Both the position numbers and the translations under genes were made by a program. This document shows positions 638 through 64,000 of a stretch of 64,000 nt of DNA, in pieces. This DNA is from Eubacteriales bacterium. GTDB taxonomy: Bacteria; Bacillota; Clostridia; Oscillospirales; CAG-272. The stretch spans positions 5,704 through 69,703 of the forward strand of contig JAZRAE010000029.1 in the NCBI GenBank assembly GCA_045634385.1, given 5' to 3'. The notes under the pieces were generated by a model that saw only the letters and a list, made by a program, of their open reading frames with translations, ran no database searches and had not been told where the DNA came from. How positions within the stretch are numbered: the first letter of the stretch is position 1; each line of letters begins with the position of its first letter.

Positions 638-3541
638 TCAATCGATGGAAAGTGTGATAGTTATATTACCGGGAGTGTTCCACGTGCCTATGCTGAACCG
701 GTAAGTCATCCCCTCGGTAACTTCAAGCGAGATCGTTTCAGTCAAGTATGCACTGGCATTTATACCCGTATTTTCTCCCCTATCGTTAAGCTCAAAGATG
801 TTGCCCCAGGAGTCTGCGCTCGGCCAGGTAATGGTGAATGTACCGGTCTTCTCGGCAGTAAATTTGTAGAACACCTTGCTTGAGGTGTTGGAATAGAGAG
901 TTATGCTCTCGGGTAGAGATTCAAGTATGTATGGATTTTTTTCAGTTCCATCAGGCTCTACATCCGGCGTTTGATTTTTACCGTCCTCGATGATGATATC
1001 TTCATCGGTGGGTACGAGTGTATAGTAAGTGCCATTGTTGTATATCGCACTCATCGTACCATCTGTAATCGTAAACTTTGGATCTGAGGTATTGGGAAGT
1101 TTATTACCCTTATAATAAACCTCAAACACTCCATCAACATAGGTGTAAGTAAAGGTTGTAACTCTGCCCTCGGGGTCAACGATGTTGATCGACGTGGAAT
1201 CAATGAGAACACGCACGTTGGTATTATAGGCGTTCAAGGTATTAAAGTTACCCTCAAGGCCGGTAAGAGTCGGGGAGGGATCAGGATCAGGCTCGGGATC
1301 TGTCGTGTCAGAACTGCCGCCTGCAGCTCGATACGAGATAGTGAACGTGTATTCACCCGCATCGCTAAGCCCACCGATATAAACAGAGATAGTATACGTA
1401 CCCGGGGTGAGATAAGCAGAGTCGCGGGAAATGAGCATGTTTTTAGAATCGTAGAAGTTGGCAAACATCATATCCGCACTAAACAAATACGTGCCCTCTT
1501 CAGTCACCTCAAGGGTATAAATGATAGCCTCTTTCTCAAGGTCAAAGTCGTTCAAAACCAAGGTGTGAGTTCCGATAGTAATTGAATTCACGGTAGGAAC
1601 TTCCGGATTAGCGTTACCACCATTTTCCCCGGAATATTCGGTTATTTCATAATAAATGTAAACAAATATTTCCTTTTCCGGCGAAGAAACATAGAATTTA
1701 TAGGTTTCTCCTTTTTTGAGTGAAACAGTATTTGTACCACCTTTAGGTAAATTTGTCTGTTTGTCAATGGCGTTAAAATCTGCCCAAGGGTTCTCTTCAC
1801 CGTCACTCCATGCACCGACGTAGCTGCCCGCAGGAACGGTAAAGGTGTAGTCGCCGTCAGAGGGGGCTGTAAATGTAACGTAATCTACCCACGAGTTGTT
1901 ATCGGTGATTTCAACCTTAATGGCATTCTCGGGAGTGGGGGTTGGATCATATGGTTTTGTCTCAGCTTCCTCGGCGATGACGGTAACCTCTTTTATAACA
2001 TCGCCCGCTATGATAGTTACTGTATAAGTGCCCGCAACTTTTACGTTGAAGATTGCAGATGACGTGATCGCATTAGAGAAGCAAATAACGTCAGCATATG
2101 GACAGAAAGCGATGAACTCATCACCAACGTAGCTAATTGAAGTGCCCTCCGGTTTAAAGTTACCAAGATAAAGATGGAACACCTTACCTACCGTGACGTT
2201 AATCGTACCGTTTATCATCTCGGTCCGATCGACATCCGCATAGATATCAAAGTCAGTAGGGATAAATTCGCTCTTGGGATGCTCGCTGACGTAATTCCTT
2301 ACACCCTCATTTTGTTTCACATCAAAGGTGTAGGTATCCGGGCGTGCATTAGCGCGCATTGTTATTTTGCCTGTTGCGGGATCATAGTTAAAGTCCTTGT
2401 CAACCTCATCCTCAAGGGAGTTAGTGTAACAATCACAGAGAACGTTAAGTTCACTCAGTGCGCCGCTGTCGGATATTGTAAAGGAAACTTTCACCTCATA
2501 ATAGTCCACATGAGGAGCTTCCCCTACAGCCGTGTTAAGATTTACGTATAAATAATTGAATGCAAAGAGGTATTTTCCATCCTCATATTTTGATGTAAAA
2601 TCGGAGGCATCTTTGCTTTTCGCAAGGGTATAAATCACATCAAGGAGATTCTCTGCTCCGTATGCATTCGCGAGTGTGGATACCGAATAATAGCATCCGA
2701 CAAGCTTATTTTGATTAGATGCAGCATCAAAAACTATACTACCCTCTTCTCCCTCGCTCGTCTGTCGATAAACACCAAAAACAGATCCGTCATCAAGAAG
2801 CTGATACCAGCTTTCCTGAGTGCTTGACACCTGATTGCCGTAGTTCTCAGACTGATTCTCTGCCTTGTAATACGATGCTCCATTACCAAGTACGTAGGTA
2901 AGCACCATATCATTATTAATATAGCCAAGTGCCGAGGAGCTATAATAGTTATAGTTGAGTGTTCCGCCGTTGATCTTATAGGAGTTAGAAACAACAATCG
3001 GAATAATAGAGTCTAGATTGGATATATCAACATCGCAAACTTTCTCTGCGCAGACTGTACATCTACCGAAGATATCTACCACGTGTACGTGTGCTTTACA
3101 AGAGTCACAAGAACCATCCGAGTCGGTGTCAAGATGGGGGGCGAGATCAGTACTTTCTCCCGTATGGGAGCATGTCGCCTCTCTCCAGTGGTGAGTCGCA
3201 TCGAAGTTCCAGTCATCTCTGTATGTGTGCGAGTGTCCTACTTCATATGCACACACGTCACACTTGCCGTCCTCATCCGTGTCGGAATGAGAATCTACGT
3301 CAGCCTTAAGAGATGTATGCTCACAGGTAGGAGCGTGCCAATGCTCCAAGGAGTTATACGACCACTTGTCACTAAAGGTGTGCTCGCAGGGGGTGTTGTT
3401 TCCCTCATTTTCACCATTTCCCTCATTATTATCAATATCCGTTTGACCGGAATTATCTAAATCACCCAAAAACGCACAGGAACTAAACAAGAATGCTATC
3501 GTTGCAAACAAGCAAAGCAACACCAGTACTCTTCTTTCCAT
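638..3541 (-). CDS. Large Cys/His-rich surface lipoprotein, paralog 1 (967 aa), function unknown
   Basis: Long ORF with a lipoprotein signal (LLCLFATIAFLFSSC). It has repeated CEHTFSDKWS..EHWHA.TCEH and D.D.DG.CD.C modules, several PPC-like signatures (VTFTAPSDGDYTFTVP, FYKFTAEKTGTFTITWP), and aligns by eye with 3830..7288 at both ends. Confidence 0.85.
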   Translation of the reverse strand: MERRVLVLLCLFATIAFLFSSCAFLGDLDNSGQTDIDNNEGNGENEGNNTPCEHTFSDKWSYNSLEHWHAPTCEHTSLKADVDSHSDTDEDGKCDVCAYEVGHSHTYRDDWNFDATHHWREATCSHTGESTDLAPHLDTDSDGSCDSCKAHVHVVDIFGRCTVCAEKVCDVDISNLDSIIPIVVSNSYKINGGTLNYNYYSSSALGYINNDMVLTYVLGNGASYYKAENQSENYGNQVSSTQESWYQLLDDGSVFGVYRQTSEGEEGSIVFDAASNQNKLVGCYYSVSTLANAYGAENLLDVIYTLAKSKDASDFTSKYEDGKYLFAFNYLYVNLNTAVGEAPHVDYYEVKVSFTISDSGALSELNVLCDCYTNSLEDEVDKDFNYDPATGKITMRANARPDTYTFDVKQNEGVRNYVSEHPKSEFIPTDFDIYADVDRTEMINGTINVTVGKVFHLYLGNFKPEGTSISYVGDEFIAFCPYADVICFSNAITSSAIFNVKVAGTYTVTIIAGDVIKEVTVIAEEAETKPYDPTPTPENAIKVEITDNNSWVDYVTFTAPSDGDYTFTVPAGSYVGAWSDGEENPWADFNAIDKQTNLPKGGTNTVSLKKGETYKFYVSSPEKEIFVYIYYEITEYSGENGGNANPEVPTVNSITIGTHTLVLNDFDLEKEAIIYTLEVTEEGTYLFSADMMFANFYDSKNMLISRDSAYLTPGTYTISVYIGGLSDAGEYTFTISYRAAGGSSDTTDPEPDPDPSPTLTGLEGNFNTLNAYNTNVRVLIDSTSINIVDPEGRVTTFTYTYVDGVFEVYYKGNKLPNTSDPKFTITDGTMSAIYNNGTYYTLVPTDEDIIIEDGKNQTPDVEPDGTEKNPYILESLPESITLYSNTSSKVFYKFTAEKTGTFTITWPSADSWGNIFELNDRGENTGINASAYLTETISLEVTEGMTYRFSIGTWNTPGNITITLSID

Positions 3542-3737
3542 AGTTAAGTGCCTCCAATCTATCTTTATACGTATTGCAAAATCATAATTTAAAAAATAAA
3601 AATACTACGGTATGTTATCATATATTATACAATATATTACAAATATTTTCAAGTGCAAAAGGCAAATATATATTTCTTTTTTGCATAATCGATGTCATTT
3701 TGCACTTAAACCGCATTTTTATTTCATTGATGTTGCA

Positions 3738-3829: not shown

Positions 3830-6800
3830 TTAAGCTACGGTGATTATGATAGTAACCTCGCCTGCAACTGCCCAAGTACCAAGGCTGAATCTGTAAGATG
3901 TGCCCTCGGTAATCTCGAAGGAGAAGGTTTCAGTCTCACATGCAGATGTATCATTTCCGGTATTTTCACCGTTTTCATTAAGCTCAAAGATATCTCCCCA
4001 AGAATCTGCGGTGGGCCAGGTAAAGGTAATTGTACCTGTCTGGGTTGCAGTGAAGATATAGAAAACTTTGTTAAATGTATCGGAGTTAAAGGTAATCGAC
4101 TCGGGAAGAATGCTAAGAACATAGGGGTCATCCTCTGTGCCGGAACCTGCATTTTCTGCTCCCTCTAACTCATAGCAAATGGTACACACACCGTCAACAT
4201 AGTTGTGGCCGAGTGCCTCTCCGTAGTAAGACCAGCAGTTGTAGCAATATGCGGGATCGGTACAGGTTGCGGGATCACCGGAATGATCAGGGGTGGTGAA
4301 TGTCTCACCGCATTCCATACACTCACCGCTCTCACCACAGCCGAGATACCAGTTGTAGTGACCTTCTGCATAGTATGTATATGATTCTACCTCTTCACAG
4401 ATGGTACATACAGCGTAATATTCGCCGTCCTCTGTACAGGTAGCGTATACATCCTTCTGAACGTCCCAATTGTGAGCGTAATAATAGTCGATTTCCTGCT
4501 CTTCGGTTGCTGTACAGCCTTCGTTGGTACAAGCTACCTTCTTAATACCGTTGGTCTGAGTCAGACAGTTTGCGGGAGTGATAATTTCTTCTTCACCCCA
4601 GAAAGCGTGTGCCTCAGAATCAATAGGAGTCTCTTCTGTGTAGTAGCTATAGCAGTAGATACACTCAAAAACAGCAACGCCGGGAGTTACACAAGTAGCA
4701 TTTACAAGCGCGTGATGATAGAAGGTATTTTCTTCGTACACGTGCTCGCAAACCTCGCCGCAAAGAGTACATACGCCATCTTCATACGCGTGCTCGCATC
4801 CGGACTCGCCATCTGAAGTAAGGGCGTAATAAGAACCGTTGTAATCAGCACTTGTGGGAACACCATTACCGTCGATTACAAGATTGCCTGCCAAAGGATT
4901 AAGCGCAACGCCATCCTCGCTATAAAGAGTAACAATACCGTTAACAATCTCATAGGTTGCTACGATAGAAGAATTTCCTGCCATAGGATGATCATAAATA
5001 AAGGTTACAGTATTGCCTTCAATAATTACGGTGAGAACCTGATTATCCCAATAATCAGTACCAAGGTAAGTGCCTTCAACAATACTTGTGGGCATATCAT
5101 CGTTAGCCTCTTCAACAACATATGTGTTACCGTTATATACAAAGGATGTGGGAACACCGTCAGAGTTAAGAGTTACACCGAGAATGTACTCACTCATTGC
5201 ATTGCCGTTAAGGAAAACGGTCATAACGCCGTCTGCAAATGTGTACTCGTAAACATTACCAGCCATGGTAACGGTGCTTGCATCTGTATCAATAACAAGA
5301 GTGCAGGTGCCGTAACCGGAACCGTAATATGTGCCGCCAACAACTTCGGATGCAGTACCGCCGTTATTGTCACCGCCTTCAACATCACCTGCGGTGTAGG
5401 TGTAGGAAATAAGCCACTCGCCCTTTGTAGTAGCAGCGATGAAGTATACGTATTCTTCACCCTCTGTAAGCTCTACAGTAACTGTTGCGCCAAATTCATT
5501 ATCATAGAAGCCAACCTCAGCGTCTGCCCACTGATTATACGCCTCAGCGGAATACCAACCAAGACCTGCAGGAACGGAGAAGACGTATGTACCTGAACCG
5601 GGAGCGGTGAATGTGTATTCATCAATGTAACCGTATGTATCGGTTGTTTCTACAACAAACTCGTCCTCACCGGCAACTATGTCGCCACTGCCTGATCCAT
5701 CCTCAACTACAATAGTGAAGGAGAAGGTCTTGCCGCCGAGAATGATCTCAACGGGATATGTACCGGCAGCGTAAGCATAAAGAGAAACGTTATTACCGTA
5801 ACCGAAGCCCCAGATGTTTTCATCAGCATTTACTACGAGAGAGTCAATGATGTATGCAACATTAGAATTTTCGGGAGTGCAGTTGCCAAAGTAAAGATCA
5901 ATGAAATCGCCAAGAGTGATGGTAATGGTGTCACCAAGCCCTACAGTACAATCCTCATCAACAAATACGTCAAAGTCTTCGGGAATAAAATCGGAAGCGG
6001 AATACTCTGCAACATAGGTTCTCTCACCCTCAGTCTGAGTTACTACGAAGGTGTATACATCTGCAACTGCAGTATCCTTCAAAGTAATTGTGTTTGTGTT
6101 CTGATCATAGGTGTAGTCCTGATCCCATTCGCTCTCAACAGAGTTGGTATAGCAATCACACTGAATATTAAGACCGGTAAGTGTACCCTTAGCGGAAACG
6201 GTGAAGCTAACTGCCACCTCATAGTAGTCAACGTGGTTACCCTCACCCATACCGGTGTCGGAATTTACATAAAGATAATTGTAAGAGAAGCTGTAAGTTC
6301 CGTTGTCATAGTTGTAGACATACTCGGAAGCTGAGGCACTCTGAGAAAGATCATAAAGAACCTTAAGAGTGTTCTCGGGACCATATGCATCTGCAAGAGT
6401 GGATATAGCGAAATAATAACCACCGATAAGCTCGCTGGTGGGATTATCGTCGATCATGAAGTCACTAAATTCACCTTCATATTCGGTACGGAATATACCC
6501 GATACGGTATCGTCCGCAAGAAGCTCGTACCAAGCCCACTGAGTCTGCTCTCCCTCATACTTGTAATGACCGTCAAAATCAACGCCCTCCTGAAGGCTAT
6601 AATAATGAGCCTTGTAGAAGGATGCTGCATTACCGAGAAGATAATCGATAGTCTGAGTGAATGCAGAAATGCTTTCCTGAGCAACGCTGGTACCAAGATA
6701 GTCGTTTATGATCTTACCACCTGTTACGTTGTTCTTACTTGCAAGAATGATAGGAAGAATAACTTCGATGTCGGTAACATCAGTATCGAATACCTGCTCA

Positions 6801-46942: not shown

Positions 46943-48361
46943 ATGGAAGATAAAAACATTTCTATGAATGAAGAAAATACCGAAGTCCTCATTACAGGCG
47001 AGACAGCAGAGGCAGTTGAGATTAATAATGAAACTGTAGCAGAGGTTGAAGCTACCGAAGCAGAAGCAACCGAAGATGTAGCAGAGGTTGAAACTACCGA
47101 AGCAGAGGTAACCGAAGATGTAGCAGAGGTTGAAACTACCGAAGCAGAGGTAACCGAAGCTGTTGCAGAGGTTGAAACTACCGAAGCAGAAGCAACCGAA
47201 GATGTAGCAGAGGTTGAAACTACCGAAGCAGAGGTAACCGAAGCTGTTGCAGAGGTTGAAACTACCGAAGCGGAGGTAACTGAAGATGTTGCAGAGGTTG
47301 AAACTACCGAAGCAAAAGCAACCGAGGCTGTAGCCGAGAATGAAGAAGAGGCAAAAGATACCGAAGTTCCTCTCGATAGAAACATCAAGCTTATGTCCCC
47401 CATGCAGATGGTCATCCGTCGTTTCTTCCGCTCCAAGCTCTCTATCGTAGGTTTAATAATGATCGTATCCCTCTTCCTCTTTAGCTTCTTTGGTCCTCTC
47501 GTTTACACGAGATGGGGCGAGATTGAGCTTGACGAGTCAGGTACCGTTTCCTACACTACACAAGAGATCGAGGTAGTTAATCCCGACGGCACAATCACCA
47601 TCATTAAGCAGACCGTTGAGAGACAGGAGAAGGATAACTACCTTGCTCCCCCCTCAAAGGATCACTTGCTCGGTACGGATGAGCAGGGCTATGACGTATT
47701 CACAAGACTTATGTACGGCGGTAGAATTTCCCTATCGGTAAGCTTTATCGCGGTATTTGTAATCACCGTCCTCGGTGTTATACTCGGCGGTATAGCAGGC
47801 TACTTTGGCGGTGTGATAGATAATCTCATAATGAGAATATGCGACGTACTCATGTGTCTGCCCGGTATTCCGATCCTTCTTATCATCAGTACACTTCTTG
47901 AGGCGGCACAGGTTGACGCAAAGTACAGAATTTACTGGCTTATGGTTTACCTTACCCTGTTCTCTTGGCCCGGCACGGCACGTCTTGTACGCGGACAGAT
48001 ACTTTCTCTGCGCGAGCAGGAGTATATGGTTGCGGCAGAGGCTATGGGTTACTCCACCGCATGAAAGATATTCAAGCATCTCGTTCCCAACGTTATGCCC
48101 CAGCTCATAGTACAGATGACACTCAGCCTTGGTAGTATGATTCTCTACGAGGCTACCCTTTCCTACCTCAACATGGGTGTTAAAGCACCTTACGCTGCTT
48201 GGGGTACTATGATTAACATCATTTCCACTAATACCGATATTCTCCAGAACAACTTCAACGTATGGGGTGCGCCCGGTATTTGTATAGTAATCGCAGTTTT
48301 GGGCTTCAATTTCGTCGGTGACGGTCTTAGAGATGCCCTTGACCCGAAGAGTAGGAGGTAA
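46943..48361 (+). pseudogene. OppC/DppC-like ABC permease interrupted by one in-frame TGA (48062..48064); carries an N-terminal acidic repeat extension
   Basis: ORFs 46943..48064 and 48095..48361 are in the same frame. Reading through gives ..EQEYMVAAEAMGYSTA*KIFKHLVPNVMPQLIVQMTLSLG.., one continuous conserved EAA-loop/TM5 region of this permease family. Confidence 0.8.
47039..47332 (+). repeat. Seven tandem copies of a 42-nt repeat encoding AEVETTEAEVTEDV-type acidic 14-mers
   Basis: Unit boundaries counted directly: 47039, 47081, 47123, 47165, 47207, 47249, 47291. There are only a few substitutions between units. Confidence 0.95.
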
Positions 48362-59221: not shown

Positions 59222-60631
59222 TTAGTTATCTAAATACTTATGAATAGATTCCGCAGCGAGCTTGCCCGCGCCCATCGCTGAGATGACCGTTGCAGCGCCT
59301 GTAACGGCATCACCTCCGGCATACACACCCCTGCGGCTGGTTAGAGCATCCTCGGAAATGATTATTCCGCCCCATCTGTTTACCTCAAGTCCCTCTGTAG
59401 TATCCTTAATAAGAGGATTGGGTGATGTGCCTATAGACATGATCACTGTATCAACGTCAATTATATGTTCACTGTTCGCAATTTCAACCGGTCTGCGTCT
59501 GCCTCTCTCATCCGGTTCACCAAGCTCCATACGGATACATTTCATACCCGTAACAAAGCCGTTTTTAGGGTCACGAGGATCGCTCGGATTGTTGTATCCA
59601 AGGATCTCGGTAGGGTTGTTTAGAAGCATAAACTCGATGCCCTCTTCAATAGCGTGCTCGACTTCCTCGTGTCTTGCAGGGAGCTCTTCCATAGAACGGC
59701 GGTAGACTATGTATACCTTTTCAGCACCAAGTCGTAGAGCTGTTCTTGCGGCATCCATGGCAACGTTTCCGCCGCCGACAACTGCAACCTTGCCCCCCTG
59801 CATAATGGGGGTATCGCTTCCCTCTCTGTAAGCTTTCATAAGATTTGAACGGGTGAGGAACTCATTGGCAGAATATACGCCCTTAAGACTCTCTCCCGGA
59901 ATACCCATAAAGTTTGGAAGTCCTGCGCCTGAGCCTATGAATACAGCCTCAAAGCCCATCTCAAAAAGCTCGTCCACCGTAAGTGTCTTTCCTATGATAA
60001 CGTTGGTAAGTATTTCAACACCCATGGACTTAAGACTCTCAACCTCTTTAGCCACTATGGATTTAGGCAGACGGAACTCGGGTATACCGTAGACAAGAAC
60101 ACCGCCCGCTGTGTGGAGTGCTTCAAAGACGGTAACAGAATAACCAAGACGCGCGAGATCACCTGCACAAGTAAGTCCGGAGGGACCGGAGCCTACGATT
60201 GCAACCTTGTGACCGTTGCTCTTTGCTACCTTGGGTGCTTCATCACTATGTGTGTTATGCCAATCGGCAACAAAACGCTCAAGTCTGCCTATACCGACGG
60301 GCTCGCCCTTGATACCTCTGACACACTTTGACTCGCATTGAGTTTCCTGCGGACAAACTCTGCCGCAAACTGCAGGAAGTGATGAACTCTCGCTGATTAT
60401 CTTGTACGCGCCCTCAAAGTCAAGTTCGCGTATCTTATCTATAAATTCGGGTATGTGAATTTTTACAGGACAGCCTGCAACACAGGGCATTGTCTTACAT
60501 CCGAGGCATCTTGCCGCCTCGTCTATTGCCTGCTCTTCTGTATAACCGAGGGCAACCTCGGAGAAAACCTTGCCGCGCTCTATAGGATCAAGAGTAGGCA
60601 TAGGATTCTTTTTGGGTGACATATTAGCCAT
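59222..60631 (-). CDS. nfnB: NADPH-dependent glutamate synthase small-subunit-like oxidoreductase (NfnB type)
   Basis: N-terminal Fe-S motifs (CLGCKTMPCVAGCP, CGRVCP). FAD/NAD Rossmann motifs (VAIVGSGPSGLTCAG, VAVVGGGNVAMD). Pairs with the upstream NfnA-like gene. Confidence 0.8.
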   Translation of the reverse strand: MANMSPKKNPMPTLDPIERGKVFSEVALGYTEEQAIDEAARCLGCKTMPCVAGCPVKIHIPEFIDKIRELDFEGAYKIISESSSLPAVCGRVCPQETQCESKCVRGIKGEPVGIGRLERFVADWHNTHSDEAPKVAKSNGHKVAIVGSGPSGLTCAGDLARLGYSVTVFEALHTAGGVLVYGIPEFRLPKSIVAKEVESLKSMGVEILTNVIIGKTLTVDELFEMGFEAVFIGSGAGLPNFMGIPGESLKGVYSANEFLTRSNLMKAYREGSDTPIMQGGKVAVVGGGNVAMDAARTALRLGAEKVYIVYRRSMEELPARHEEVEHAIEEGIEFMLLNNPTEILGYNNPSDPRDPKNGFVTGMKCIRMELGEPDERGRRRPVEIANSEHIIDVDTVIMSIGTSPNPLIKDTTEGLEVNRWGGIIISEDALTSRRGVYAGGDAVTGAATVISAMGAGKLAAESIHKYLDN

Positions 60632-61487
60632 CGTTCTCTACCCCCTTGTTAAACAAATTACAAGCCGATTCATAAGCATGACGTTCAAAGTCGCGGTACA
60701 TATTTCCGCGAGAGATCGCCTCATCAAAGTCGACCTCGTAGCCGTTAAAATCAGGGCCGTCAACGCAGGCAAATTTGGTTACGCGCTTGCCGTCAACGTT
60801 GAGTGTAAGTCTGCATCCGCCGCACATTCCCGTGCCATCGATCATTATTGGGTTCATAGATACATCGCAAGGAATACCCGTGGGGCGTGTAGCTTCTGTG
60901 ACAAATTTCATCATAATAAGAGGACCGATCGTGATCACCTTGTCAAAGCCTCTTCCATTTTTAAACATCTCGGAAAGAGGAAGACAAACGTTACCCTGCC
61001 TGCCGTAAGAACCGTCGTCCGTCATAACAATAAGCTCGTCGGATGCCGCTCGGAATTCATCCTCAAGAATGACCAGGTCGGAGGATCTGAAGCCGATTAT
61101 CGAGGTCACCGAACAGCCAAGGCTCTTTAACTTTTCTGCTACGGGCAAAGCAATAGCGCAGCCAACACCGCCGCCAACGATGCAGACGTTCTTAAGCCCC
61201 TCGGTATGAGTTGGCACACCAAGAGGTCCTGCAAAGTCGGAGAGTGAGTCGCCCTCGTTCATCTCGGCAAGCTTCTTAGTCGTCGCTCCAACGGTCTGGA
61301 AGATTATTCTGACAGTGCCTGCCTCCCTGTCATAACCTGCAACGGTGAGGGGAATTCTCTCGCCTTCACTGTCTGTGCGGAGAATAATAAACTGCCCCGC
61401 CTCCGCCTTCCTTGCAACCAAGGGAGCCTTTATATCCATAAGAGTCACGTAAGGATTAAGGACTCTTTTCGTTACTATTTCGTACAT
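60624..61487 (-). CDS. nfnA: Sulfide/dihydroorotate dehydrogenase-like FAD/NAD-binding subunit (NfnA type)
   Basis: MYEIVTKRVLNP...GQFIILR FAD-binding barrel, GGGVGCA NAD motif, and a C-terminal 2Fe-2S Cys cluster (CGGC...C). Overlaps the nfnB start by 8 nt. Confidence 0.8.
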   Translation of the reverse strand: MYEIVTKRVLNPYVTLMDIKAPLVARKAEAGQFIILRTDSEGERIPLTVAGYDREAGTVRIIFQTVGATTKKLAEMNEGDSLSDFAGPLGVPTHTEGLKNVCIVGGGVGCAIALPVAEKLKSLGCSVTSIIGFRSSDLVILEDEFRAASDELIVMTDDGSYGRQGNVCLPLSEMFKNGRGFDKVITIGPLIMMKFVTEATRPTGIPCDVSMNPIMIDGTGMCGGCRLTLNVDGKRVTKFACVDGPDFNGYEVDFDEAISRGNMYRDFERHAYESACNLFNKGVENDG

Positions 61488-61518
61488 GATTTCTCCTAAA
61501 ATATTTTTTATTTATATC

Positions 61519-61547
61519 ATTCTATCACACTACTCCGTATTTTTCAA
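61519..61547 (-). promoter_or_regulatory. nfnAB promoter
   Basis: Minus-strand TTGAAA (61547..61542), 17-nt spacer, TAGAAT (61524..61519) preceded by TG. Confidence 0.5.
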
Positions 61548-61580
61548 GATGCAGAATGTTTTTTCTGCAAAATGCAAACA

Positions 61581-61750
61581 GGACGACTTGATTTCTCAAA
61601 TCGCCCTATAAATGAATTGAGCCGTTGGCTCATGAATTGATGCTATGCATCATGAATTGACGGCAGAGCCGTCATGAATTGCCTACGGCATTATGCGTTC
61701 CTCACTCTGTTAAGGAACGCATAGCTTCGCCAATACAGTCAACATGAAGT
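61581..61750 (-). repeat. Inter-cassette module copy A (31-nt box 61720-61750, hairpin array 61611-61719, conserved hairpin 61581-61607)
   Basis: The box catagcttcgccaatacagtcaacatgaagt and the hairpin ggacgacttgatttctcaaatcgccct are shared with copies B and C. Confidence 0.85.
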
Positions 61751-61764
61751 AAAGATATGTCTGT

Positions 61765-62547
61765 TTATTTTCCAAAGCAACAGTTTACAAAATCAATACC
61801 CAGCTGAGTCAACTCAATACGATATTTTCTCATTTTTATTTCGCTGTCGGTACTATTTGTTTTTAACATATAATCATATAACCAATGCGTTTTAAATTGA
61901 TCATAATCATAATTTAGTTCCAAAACATTACCATTTTTTATCATTAATCCTAATCGCCCGAGATTCTCTATTGTTTCGGTTAAAAGCAACTCTTCTTGAT
62001 AGTCAAACTGCTTTGAACCATTTTTGATATCCAATAAAACATAAATACATGGTGTAATAGATTTATCTACATGTTGGGCGTATATTTCGCAACAGGGAAA
62101 TGTTTGGTTGCCTTTAAACAATTCCAAGAACTTAACATCCAATGGTGAAAGTTGCTTTATTATTTCAGGAAATGCCGGATGAACTTTATCAGCATAATCG
62201 ATGTTGCAAGAGGATGCAATAAGTTCGGCAAACATTTCCCTAAACGCTTCTTCTTCAATATAAAATTTACTTGCTTCTATCGCAGGCCCTACTATTCGCA
62301 TTTTAGGTTCTTGCAATTTTTCGTTTGGAATAGTATCAATCTTTTCATACATCTTTTTCTTATAATCAACAAGATATACTTCTCGTTTTATAGCTTGTTT
62401 TTGTCCCCAATATCCAAGCCACCCCATCACACCATCTACAAACAAACCTAAGTTATCACCGATGCTTTTTGAGGTTGGTCTCACAAGGTCTTGAGCAACA
62501 TCTTTACCTACTTCCACCATTGCCGTGGCAACTTTATCTTCAATCAT
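61765..62547 (-). CDS. Abi-alpha (DUF4393)-like protein, 260 aa
   Basis: The segment ..IVGPAIEASKFYIEEEAFREMFAELIASS....KVHPAFPEIIKQLSPLDVKFL.. matches my recollection of the Abi_alpha/DUF4393 core (HPAF.EIIKQLSP.DA). AT-rich gene with its own TGATATAAT promoter. Confidence 0.6.
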   Translation of the reverse strand: MIEDKVATAMVEVGKDVAQDLVRPTSKSIGDNLGLFVDGVMGWLGYWGQKQAIKREVYLVDYKKKMYEKIDTIPNEKLQEPKMRIVGPAIEASKFYIEEEAFREMFAELIASSCNIDYADKVHPAFPEIIKQLSPLDVKFLELFKGNQTFPCCEIYAQHVDKSITPCIYVLLDIKNGSKQFDYQEELLLTETIENLGRLGLMIKNGNVLELNYDYDQFKTHWLYDYMLKTNSTDSEIKMRKYRIELTQLGIDFVNCCFGK

Positions 62548-62587
62548 TTGATTTTCACCTCAAAATGTTTATTTTTTACTATAGTAT

Positions 62588-62616
62588 ATTATATCACACC
62601 AAAGCAAAAAAGTAAA
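62588..62616 (-). promoter_or_regulatory. Promoter of the Abi-alpha-like cassette
   Basis: Minus-strand TTTACT (62616..62611), 17-nt spacer, TGaTATAAT (TATAAT at 62593..62588). Confidence 0.5.
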
Positions 62617-62721
62617 GAGCGATTTGATTTCTCAAACCGCCCTTGGTGTTTTTTTTTAGTTTTTTAGAATTTCTTATCTCGCAGGATGTTCATGGCTTCG
62701 GCAATACAGGCAACATGAAGT
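62616..62721 (-). repeat. Inter-cassette module copy B (hairpin 62616-62643, box region 62667-62721)
   Basis: Direct alignment with copy C over approximately 55 nt (gaa(t/c)ttcttatctcgcaggatgttcat(g/a)gcttcg(g/c)caatacag(g/t)caacatgaagt), plus the hairpin. Confidence 0.9.
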
Positions 62722-62733
62722 ATTATTCAATCG

Positions 62734-63588
62734 TTACAATTCATCCTTACAATATCGCAAGAGCTCCTTAGCTAAGCGACAGAACGATTCGCTTTTCTTA
62801 TGTACTTCTCCATTGGAATCTAAATACTCACTGCAAAATTCCATATAATAACAAAGCTTTATTCTATTGTCAGATATAACACTAATAGGCGAGTCTATCT
62901 TGATAAGTTCTTTTTTTCTCCAAAGATTTCGGTCAATGTAAATACCTTTATCATCATGATAAGAATTGTTCGCAATTTGCTCTAATGACTCAAATGAGAA
63001 GTATATTCCAAGATATTTTGTATTTCGATCAGATAAAAACTTTATGAGTTCTGCAAAATCAACTTGCTTAAAGCATCTTTTACCCAATTCATTCCAATAC
63101 CAAAGATATATTAGCAGTTGTTTCTGAGCCAAAAATTCTATCAATCCAAATAAGCCTTCTTTTTCCCAAAAACCGCTGATTGTGTATGTCTTATACCTAA
63201 TTTTCGGTTGTTCGCAATAAGTAATTGCCTGATCGAATAACTGTGACGAGGGAGAATAATCTATATCAATCTGGGCGAACTTTTTGATTTTTCCACATTC
63301 CGTGCATTGGGAAACAAGCTCAACATATTGAAAATCATCAGACTCTTTTCGTGTCTTATAGTCAAATCTTATCTTAAAGAAATCGTTTTTACAGGAACAT
63401 TTTCGCTTGCTTGGATATTCTTCCTGAATTAAATCATACCAATAATCTTTGCTATCAAGAATAAAATATGATTTGTCAGAACGGGATGTAAGAATACCTA
63501 CATTTTCATCACGTATATATCTAATTTGAAATTCATCTTCTCCAGTAGATGATATGATTTCCTTTGATATTTTTCTTTCATCAAGCAT
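62734..63588 (-). CDS. Hypothetical protein, 284 aa (cassette gene, possible zinc-ribbon CxC...CxxC)
   Basis: AT-rich ORF containing CSCKNDFF...QCTECGK. No family recognised. Confidence 0.7.
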   Translation of the reverse strand: MLDERKISKEIISSTGEDEFQIRYIRDENVGILTSRSDKSYFILDSKDYWYDLIQEEYPSKRKCSCKNDFFKIRFDYKTRKESDDFQYVELVSQCTECGKIKKFAQIDIDYSPSSQLFDQAITYCEQPKIRYKTYTISGFWEKEGLFGLIEFLAQKQLLIYLWYWNELGKRCFKQVDFAELIKFLSDRNTKYLGIYFSFESLEQIANNSYHDDKGIYIDRNLWRKKELIKIDSPISVISDNRIKLCYYMEFCSEYLDSNGEVHKKSESFCRLAKELLRYCKDEL

Positions 63589-63620
63589 GACACAATTCCT
63601 TTCTAATATTCTTTGCTTTT

Positions 63621-63650
63621 ATTATACCACACCGCACATAAAAAAGTCAA
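63621..63650 (-). promoter_or_regulatory. Promoter of the 284-aa cassette gene
   Basis: Minus-strand TTGACT (63650..63645), 18-nt spacer, TGgTATAAT (TATAAT at 63626..63621). The -35 abuts the conserved hairpin. Confidence 0.5.
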
Positions 63651-63750
63651 GGACGGCTTGATTTCTCAAACCGCCCTGTGTTTTTGTATTTTTTAGAACT
63701 TCTTATCTCGCAGGATGTTCATAGCTTCGCCAATACAGTCAACATGAAGT
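63651..63750 (-). repeat. Inter-cassette module copy C (hairpin 63651-63676, box region 63696-63750)
   Basis: Same elements as copies A and B. The box ends 1 nt from the stop codon of the upstream gene. Confidence 0.9.
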
Positions 63751-63751
63751 G

Positions 63752-64000
63752 TTATTTTCTTTTAATGTGCCATTCATCTTTTTTGCTATTGCGTTCTGCA
63801 ATAAATCCACAAGGCAAGGCTGATAGTTTTGAAAGAGTTTTATCCAATTTTAAAATCTCTCCTAAAGAAACAACTCTTGCTTCGCTTGTAGCATGAGATT
63901 TACCACATAAAAATTGCCACATTCCATCATCTGCATCATGAGATACATATAAAATCGGCATATTATCTTCAAGAATATGACAGCATGTAATAACAGCAGT
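63752..64000 (-). CDS. DUF2185-like protein, C-terminal part (ORF open to the right window edge)
   Basis: No stop codon upstream of the first Met within the window (..TAVITCCHILEDNMPILYVSHDADDGMWQFLCG..). The DDGMWQFLCG motif resembles the DSGW.F..G core I associate with DUF2185 (immunity-type) proteins. Confidence 0.5.
   Translation of the reverse strand, partial: TAVITCCHILEDNMPILYVSHDADDGMWQFLCGKSHATSEARVVSLGEILKLDKTLSKLSALPCGFIAERNSKKDEWHIKRK

Follow-up and report, generated by a model that had tools for sequence, protein, structure and literature searches.

A mini-hairpin array behind an Abi_alpha cassette is a solo arm of an apparently undescribed 'hairpin ladder' family of uncultured gut Clostridia

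The BIME/REP elements of enterobacteria and the BOX elements of pneumococci are extragenic, multi-copy repeats composed of palindromes and linkers, arranged in variable modules that often lie in 3' untranslated regions (UTRs) and can fold in mRNA. The Correia/NEMIS elements of Neisseria are small inverted repeats in transcribed intergenic DNA, which can bring promoters and also fold in mRNA. The targets of diversity-generating retroelements (DGRs) need a neighboring DNA hairpin or cruciform, whose shape matters rather than its sequence. The intervening sequences (IVSs) of 23S rRNA are stem-bounded elements of unknown function, excised by RNase III; their open reading frames (ORFs) encode PF05635 proteins, one of which, Xanthomonas S23p, is a pentameric toroid, and the elements themselves are regarded as selfish (PMC4990558). 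PF05635 proteins, in turn, resemble the DGR accessory protein Avd (PMC10053308). Here, we analyze a 64,000-nucleotide stretch of a Eubacteriales bacterium (contig JAZRAE010000029.1, assembly GCA_045634385.1), referred to as the window, which contains an array of mini-hairpins on constant linkers behind an Abi_alpha gene. The array is one arm of an element that we call the ladder, which is most like a hybrid of an IVS and a mosaic extragenic repeat (BIME/REP, BOX, Correia) and does not qualify as either.

The array contains four ATGAATTG linkers on the plus strand, starting at 61612, 61632, 61652 and 61674, with a spacing of 20/20/22 nt. Together with the TG of one linker and the CA ending at the first base of the next, each inter-linker segment forms a perfect hairpin, and all four units are mini-palindromes closed by TG...CA. 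Between 61612 and 61690, the plus strand reads ATGAATTG-AGCCgttGGCTC-ATGAATTG-ATGCtatGCATC-ATGAATTG-ACGGCagaGCCGTC-ATGAATTG-CCtacGG-CA. TCATGAATTGA is exact at 61630 and 61650 and has a single mismatch at 61672; elsewhere in the window, ATGAATTG occurs at about chance frequency. The components of the array are the following (identifiers beginning with L or P denote related loci):

61612-19, 61632-39, 61652-59 and 61674-81: four constant linkers, plus-strand ATGAATTG, which the minus-strand transcript shows as CAAUUCAU
61618-61632, minus strand: mini-hairpin of the AGCC/GGCT type, TGAGCC-gtt-GGCTCA, with homologues conserved in L009, L122 and L132
61638-61652, minus strand: mini-hairpin of the ATGC/GCAT type, TGATGC-tat-GCATCA, whose homologues in L009, L121 and L132 have G.U changes on the mRNA-sense strand
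61658-61674, minus strand: mini-hairpin of the ACGGC/GCCGT type, TGACGGC-aga-GCCGTCA, with homologues in L009, L122 and L132
61680-61690, minus strand: mini-hairpin of the GCC/GGC type, TGCC-tac-GGCA, its stem invariant and its loop differing in four homologous modules
61693-61722, minus strand: 10-bp stem ATGCGTTCCT/AGGAACGCAT, straddling the stop codon (61704-61702) of a cotJC 3' remnant, with a 5' arm that encodes ...MRS on the minus strand

ViennaRNA predicts exactly these five hairpins on either strand. Folded as RNA, the minus strand reaches -77.2 kcal/mol (z = -7.5), a stability matched by 0 of 200 shuffled sequences; folded as DNA, the plus strand of the array gives z = -4.8. The combination of constant linker and variable palindrome, first proposed in a sequence-only reading of this stretch, is therefore real, both in the sequence and in the predicted folds; the array is as described there, except that the first hairpin, too, is preceded by a linker, which brings the linkers to four.

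The same reading had proposed a search for further copies and staked its case on their existence. Such copies were found: a scan of one genome per species with the pattern TCATGAATTG-N9-13-TCATGAATTG (20 specified bases) yielded at least 120 loci with a linker pair, against ~5 estimated by chance. Around 85 of the at least 120 listed loci are from metagenome-assembled genomes (MAGs) of animal and human gut, assigned to Clostridia, Eubacteriales, Oscillospiraceae, Ruminococcus, Christensenellaceae and Acutalibacteraceae, and several genomes contribute 2-3 loci each among the matches listed. Members were defined by at least three ATGAATTG linkers (at most one mismatch) spaced 17-24 nt apart and by palindromes with TG...CA closure and loops of 3-4 nt. 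A profile built from 32 canonical copies matches the window at 61608-61693 only (nhmmer; E = 7e-5 on the plus strand, 1.7e-4 on the minus strand). The window array thus agrees with the ATGAATTG/CAATTCAT ladder family in linker spacing, palindromes and profile, and lacks two further features of family members, a second arm with reverse-complementary linkers within a few hundred nt and an adjacent or enclosed PF05635 gene. Its family identity and anatomy are well supported, and the family, which belongs to uncultured gut Clostridia, is apparently undescribed.

The ladder unit is a constant AT-rich linker followed by a GC-rich perfect mini-palindrome closed by TG...CA. The main arrangement in Clostridial loci is '>>>><<<<', namely four ATGAATTG followed by three or four CAATTCAT. 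The array of the window is not a one-off but a solo arm of a two-armed element with complementary linkers. Complete copies measure ~160-190 nt and comprise four repeats of linker plus hairpin, then three or four of complementary linker plus hairpin. The canonical element is built as follows:

Part 1: first palindrome, GAGTTTGC-aaa-GCAAACTC or GATTTCATC-nnn-GATGAAATC
Parts 2-5: linker with GCC hairpin; linker with AAATC hairpin; linker with AGCC hairpin; linker with CAC hairpin
Parts 6-7: CATTAAAGG, then the complementary linkers with three further hairpins between them

The place of the first palindrome is occupied by the terminator hairpin of the upstream gene in 4 of the 32 aligned copies and by a different palindrome in others. 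Across the family, 76% of 526 inter-linker segments are end-anchored stems of at least 4 bp, as opposed to 15.5% after shuffling, so that the pattern greatly exceeds chance, and these segments hold 69 distinct inner arms; the AGCC/GGCT hairpin is the most frequent type, with 55 units. At least six linker types exist, each with complementary arms: ATGAATTG/CAATTCAT, TCGATATG/CATATCGA, GCTAAAT/ATTTAGC, ACTTCAC/GTGAAGT, TGAAATA/TATTTCA and AGTGATA/TATCACT. Six independent linkers, each matched by its complement, amount to covariation at the level of the whole helix. In minimum-free-energy and RNAalifold consensus folds, the linkers form nested pairs, from the first and last linkers inward to linkers 4 and 5, and the mini-hairpins branch off between these linker helices, hence the name 'ladder'. 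In the canonical alignment, seven hairpin pairs show compensatory changes; the loops are saturated with change, and linkers and stems are conserved. A reading of the ATGAATTG linker as a mini-ORF (ATG AAT TGA) was discarded, since other linker types contain neither a start nor a stop codon.

The regularity of the repeat also invites a reading at the level of double-stranded DNA, in which a protein would recognize TCATGAATTGA every two helical turns, as in iteron- or centromere-like arrays. The period of 20-22 bp (approximately two helical turns), the constant part of 8-11 bp, and the direct arrays of four with an inverted set nearby, reminiscent of transposon ends or plasmid parC sites, are in line with this idea. 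However, it leaves unexplained why the variable spacers are palindromic and kept so by compensatory change, and why six unrelated linkers share one architecture with complementary arms; besides the IVP gene described below, no DNA-binding gene recurs nearby. We regard such an array as very improbable.

A consensus promoter of the sigma-A type is part of most complete copies. TTGnnn-N17-TAnnnT is present in 21 of the 32 canonical copies, 19 of these 21 with a TG extension. Its end lies at a fixed distance of 20-22 nt from the first linker, and the spacers differ in sequence without sign of relationship. No terminator follows complete ladders, and a ribosome-binding site and start codon often lie within ~5-20 nt. 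Copies within one genome are 75-87% identical, compared with a mean of 84% between species, which gives no indication of recent intragenomic spread and speaks for copies that are old and constrained. Around complete elements, neither target-site duplications nor empty sites were evident. Viral contigs yielded three matches, near chance, so the element is not phage-borne. When neighboring ORFs of the family loci were clustered, the IVP gene was the sole recurrent family, and no transposase, recombinase or RAYT-type transposase recurred; most loci lie outside cassette arrays and adjoin housekeeping genes.

Ladders share with BIME/REP and BOX elements an extragenic, multi-copy, modular make-up of palindromes and linker motifs. 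However, the palindrome sequence is conserved in REP and BOX, whereas ladders combine a constant linker with variable palindromes; successive REP units are of opposite orientation, whereas ladder units are direct within an arm; and a consensus promoter is part of most complete ladder copies. With variable palindromes, direct units and no recurrent transposase among the neighbors, the ladder does not qualify as a REP/BIME element. Correia/NEMIS elements differ in their terminal inverted repeats and TA target duplication, neither of which is seen in ladders, whose copies look ancient. In Rfam 15, the window region gave only chance-level matches (E up to 10), and none of nine family loci reached the gathering score. 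The literature search recovered no description of such arrays, with background on IVS and Avd only. The claim that no described element follows this inverted logic of constant spacer and variable palindrome holds as far as Rfam is concerned, and is tempered by partial precedents in BIME, BOX and IVS stems.

Homologues of the window array occupy L009, L121, L122/L123, L128 and L132. In L009, a matching arm lies at the matching place after an intact Mn-catalase gene (Pfam Mn_catalase match); this locus keeps the peptide ...GEAMRSLTE* with other codons and has a rebuilt 10-bp stem, four pairs of which differ on both sides. The unit order in L132:640-900 is that of the window array, and L121, a metagenome contig, has two units only. 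These three homologues (L009, L121 and L132) are solo arms like the window copy. Other modules of the relatives contain CAATTCAT arrays assembled from a few shared hairpin types (ACGGC, GGC, GCAC, AGCC, ATGC) in different orders, and some hold an ACTTCAC array in addition to the CAATTCAT array or in place of it. Homologous modules have 0, 2 or 4 units. Number and order thus change by whole units, the outcome expected of slippage or recombination at identical linkers of 8-11 nt, by which we infer the units to have been added, lost and rearranged.

Pairing is kept across these loci, as the sequence-only reading had anticipated. In an alignment of four related sequences on the mRNA-sense strand (window module A, L009, L132 and L121), 96.9% of the cells are standard pairs, as against 28-43% when the partners are slid, and seven pairs are changed on both sides. 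Five changes within helices 1-5, which comprise the array hairpins and the stop-codon stem, are one-sided, and all five give G.U on the mRNA strand. Since these changes leave G.U pairs on the mRNA strand and A.C mismatches on the other, they favor an RNA structure for the window copy, and the four-sequence comparison is to be taken as suggestive rather than conclusive. The covariation originally read within the window itself is of a different nature: its units are different hairpin types from a small shared repertoire and not substitutions at one site, and it is the comparison among homologues that bears out kept pairing.

Around the array, every gene of the window is encoded on the minus strand, and each of the first three is followed by a repeated module (C, B and A in transcription order) made of a short ORF remnant, an intrinsic terminator and an extended -10 promoter for the next gene. 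From first to last in transcription, the region comprises:

63752-63961, minus strand: gene fragment with a weak Imm33 match, first in order
63640-63756, minus strand: module C, composed as module B, without array
62734-63588, minus strand: gene for a 284-aa protein, second in order
62606-62727, minus strand: module B, with cotJC remnant (variant ...GEAMNILRDKKF*), terminator and promoter, without array
61765-62547, minus strand: Abi_alpha cassette gene (PF14337, E = 5.7e-44), in whose transcript the array would form part of the 3' UTR
~61578-61750, minus strand: module A, with the hairpin array
61702-61749, minus strand: 3'-end remnant of cotJC (Mn-catalase), LHVDCIGEAMRSLTE*, which opens module A
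61578-61609, minus strand: intrinsic-terminator hairpin GGGCGATTTGA-GAAA-TCAAGTCGTCC, located by a terminator pattern scan directly 3' of the array on the transcript
61519-61547, minus strand: promoter of the PyrK-like/GltD-like operon, TTGAAA-N17-TAGAAT with a TG extension
60624-61487 and 59222-60631, minus strand: PyrK-like/GltD-like oxidoreductase operon, last in order

The module terminator follows the pattern GGGCGrTTTGA-GAAA-TCAArTCGyyC and then Ts, at 61609-61578 and 62644-62615; modules B and C as well as the relatives conserve the hairpin at 61578-61609, in which minus-strand G.U pairs occur. Because the array sits between the stop codon of the remnant and this terminator, it is part of a 3' UTR supplied by the module and not of the Abi gene. 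The sequence-only reading, which had placed it in the 3' region of that gene, is corrected on this point, as it is on the size of the stretch replaced relative to modules B and C: a block of ~113 nt in module A stands where B and C have ~44 nt, not ~25 nt. In the relative L122/L123 (GCA_017453245.1), whose PyrK-like protein is 93% identical to that of the window, the gene order is cotJA-cotJB-cotJC, four single-gene cassettes and the PyrK-like operon, with a copy of the module after every gene; the native cotJC 3' end there reads ...REIVHYQRFGEAMRSLTE*. Arrays in relatives also follow native cotJC and cassettes of other genes, and the array has no specific tie to Abi-alpha.

The interval between cotJC and the PyrK-like operon is a hot spot for single-gene cassettes (window 61488-64000; L122/L123 860-6000; L128, L131 and L132). 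Abi_alpha and DUF3885 are among the cassette genes, as are genes with weak matches to Imm33 and Tox-REase-9 and further, unassigned ones. Behind each cassette lie a duplicated remnant of the cotJC 3' end, a terminator and an extended -10 promoter belonging to that cassette. Which cassettes are present varies among relatives whose PyrK-like proteins are ~92-93% identical, and the layout is integron-like, with no integrase seen in the syntenic loci.

Two further readings draw on this neighborhood. In the first, the array would be a recombination site that, once folded as single-stranded DNA in the manner of an integron attC, is recognized by a recombinase inserting cassettes 3' of cotJC. The array does lie within a repeated inter-cassette module, all L122/L123 modules carry one, and the region from cotJC to the PyrK-like operon holds different cassettes in different relatives. 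Modules B and C of the window are nonetheless without an array, most family members adjoin housekeeping genes outside cassette arrays, no recombinase recurs near arrays, and the R/L-box or extrahelical-base anatomy of attC is absent, which together make a recombination site improbable. In the second, the array would be an RNA repeat of the type III toxin-antitoxin kind that neutralizes the neighboring Abi protein. Tandem repeats adjoining an abortive-infection gene recall such systems; however, the gene is Abi_alpha rather than a ToxN/AbiQ-family endoribonuclease, the units are 20-22 nt long instead of the ~34-45 nt of ToxI-like repeats, and they lie downstream rather than upstream of the gene. 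The presence of the array after cotJC, DUF3885 and unrelated cassette genes in relatives already contradicts this reading, to which we give hardly any credence.

The recurrent neighbor of ladders is a gene for a ~118-aa protein matching PF05635 (23S_rRNA_IVP, E = 1e-25), here the IVP gene. In the first set of loci, none of the eight IVP genes is without a ladder: five are placed ~16-17 nt downstream, and three (L084, L034 and L108) lie between two arms, flanked by an inner CATTAAGG/CCTTAATG pair. As a control for ascertainment bias, three homologues (P0128, P0153 and P0193) were picked by protein similarity alone; at 66-69% identity and with differing gene neighborhoods, all three have a ATGAATTG/CAATTCAT ladder as 5' leader. 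All 11 IVP genes examined are therefore beside or inside a ladder, and many ladders have no IVP gene. In L134, a near-identical second forward arm (1873-1938) immediately follows a ladder-led IVP gene, which is thus bracketed by two forward arms in direct orientation. In L135-L143, which belong to one lineage, an RNase H gene comes 10 nt after a ladder-led IVP gene, with RNase J adjoining; these neighbors may be coincidental or may hint at a connection with nucleic-acid processing.

This association links the ladder to the 23S rRNA IVSs of Coxiella, Leptospira and others, with which it shares a PF05635 four-helix-bundle gene with complementary termini and a long transcript stem (L084, L034 and L108, in which the termini enclose the S23p/IVP ORF), as well as an unexplained, possibly selfish status (PMC4990558). 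Unlike IVSs, ladders lie in intergenic regions, 5' leaders and 3' UTRs and not in rRNA; they form four linker helices of 7-8 bp with extruded mini-hairpins, instead of a continuous 28-bp duplex; and ORF-less copies and solo arms are common among them. The window copy, without ORF and second arm, lies between protein-coding genes, not in a 23S rRNA helix, and encloses no IVP ORF between its termini. The likeness of PF05635 proteins to Avd (PMC10053308) is the point shared with DGRs; the ladder loci show neither a reverse transcriptase nor a template/variable repeat pair, and they have many hairpins in place of one.

The link to IVP raises the tentative, and rather unlikely, reading that the ladder is the nucleic-acid ligand of a pentameric four-helix-bundle protein, IVP/Avd-like in kind. 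Every protein ring would be wrapped by a single arm of four linkers and five hairpins, the ladder leader would serve autoregulation of the IVP gene, and solo arms in UTRs would act as trans sites that tie other transcripts, here those of defence/immunity cassettes, to the IVP protein. The window copy is possibly such a ligand.

We favor a reading in which the window feature, a four-unit solo arm of the ladder family, acts as a folded RNA module of the 3' UTR, and assign it a probability of about 0.55. A folded 3'-UTR RNA module is the most likely function of the window copy. On the minus-strand transcript, a row of very stable mini-hairpins on constant CAAUUCAU linkers would fold just upstream of the terminator. 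This module, structural or ligand-binding in nature, could take part in protection or processing of the transcript, or present a series of sites to the family-associated IVP protein or to complementary AUGAAUUG arms. Among the roles put forward in the sequence-only reading, the structured 3' UTR fits the window copy best, and the footprint of a hairpin-targeting or template-switching enzyme, though possible, has no direct support.

Several observations weigh against this interpretation. In the stems of canonical ladders, Watson-Crick pairs make up 98.4% and G.T shows no excess over A.C (2 versus 5), a comparison that as a test of RNA against DNA is neutral or speaks slightly against RNA; the stems fit DNA palindromes or template-switch correction at least as well as RNA. 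At the usual promoter spacing, transcription would start inside the first palindrome, leaving its hairpin incomplete in the RNA, and 4 of the 32 canonical copies begin directly after a terminator and not a promoter. Arms are found in both orientations relative to nearby terminators, and arms with non-complementary linkers stand side by side in some modules. Modules B and C function without any array. In the window, a scan revealed no CAATTCAT cluster near the array on the plus strand, and a six-frame search of the 64 kb for the PF05635 signature motif (as in SIGANIHE) gave no match; with neither a complementary arm nor an IVP gene, ladder pairing or IVP binding would need to act in trans.

Several of these observations lend weight to the view that the ladder is a selfish or neutral palindromic repeat of DNA, an IVS-like remnant or one resembling a miniature inverted-repeat transposable element, possibly mobilized together with the IVP gene and functionless in the window. 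Its palindromes would be kept perfect by intrastrand template switching (quasipalindrome correction), and its unit number would shift by slippage. We consider this possible but doubtful. Besides accounting for Watson-Crick stems without G.T excess, for arms in both orientations and for adjacent non-complementary solo arms (e.g., ACTTCAC beside CAATTCAT), it accommodates the polymorphic unit number and the IVP gene enclosed by arms, like cargo between terminal inverted repeats; moreover, the 23S IVS elements with the same gene family are regarded as selfish (PMC4990558). A repeat of this kind is harder to reconcile with promoter hexamers that are conserved while their spacers are randomized, with the one-sided changes of the window's module family that give G.U on the mRNA strand only, and with the lack, noted above, of target-site duplications, empty sites, signs of recent spread and viral matches beyond chance.

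Further repeats were noted alongside the family. Ladders with other linkers (TCGATATG, GCTAAAT, ACTTCAC, TGAAATA and AGTGATA) were seen at L096:2756-2927, L110:7295-7466, L022:4487-4659 and 1977-2100, L114:4120-4290, L116:1298-1457, L037:5104-5250 and L053:1390-1530, often in tandem with a ATGAATTG-type element and separated from it by a conserved GGCATCTAAATCGTTCAC...TATAAT spacer. A GC-rich motif, ...CCTCATCCACCAC-nnn-GTGGTCCCCCTTCTCC-nnnn-GGAGAAGG..., recurs beside hairpin arrays in several genomes (L122:1420-1600, 2700-2780, 3500-3590 and 5530-5590; L003:6990-7040; L015:7240-7300; flanks of L006 and L075). Further mini-hairpin arrays with a (G)ATGAAATC(C) linker lie 3' of the module terminator (L009:340-520, minus strand; L122:2620-2700), and linker-plus-palindrome arrays seem to be general in the intergenic DNA of this lineage. 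Matches to the 10-mer in cyanobacteria, Ferruginibacter and other genomes were excluded as members, being different repeat families: the cyanobacterial MAGs (L016, L020, L031, L036, L040, L048 and others) carry the palindrome GGGGCAATTCATGAATTGCCCC within a larger inverted repeat, and Ferruginibacter (L005 and L026) has tandem TTCATGAATTGCCTCGGGC units.

Elsewhere in the window, positions 290-540 form a hairpin-rich intergenic stretch, where TGAATTGAG (318-326) is followed by TTTGCC-tat-GGCAAA and other palindromes and which ends in a terminator-like hairpin near 500-540. The sequence-only reading was right about the recurrence of TGAATTGAG, but this is not evidence of a second copy, as the family profile does not match there; the stretch may be a decayed element or unrelated. 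At 47030-47338, a 42-nt tandem repeat (126-nt super-period) of ~7 copies with 90-93% identity lies inside the ORF at 46943-48064 and encodes an acidic repeat rich in E, T, A and V.

If this account is true, a modular nucleic-acid structure that is conserved, comes with a promoter and is described in no database is present in many uncultured gut Clostridia; it has an unusual architecture in which constant linkers pair with one another and hairpins vary freely while remaining palindromic. The link to PF05635 bears on two old puzzles, the role of the 23S IVS ORFs and the ligands of Avd-like proteins outside DGRs, and the ladder would provide a defined candidate ligand, RNA or DNA, with which IVP/Avd-like proteins can be tested. 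The IVP-ligand reading, if true, would provide a function for 23S IVS proteins and a new kind of repeat-RNA/protein system. As ladder arrays populate UTRs and the inter-cassette modules of defence/immunity gene arrays, they need annotation, which would prevent their confusion with CRISPR-like repeats, type III antitoxins or assembly artefacts.

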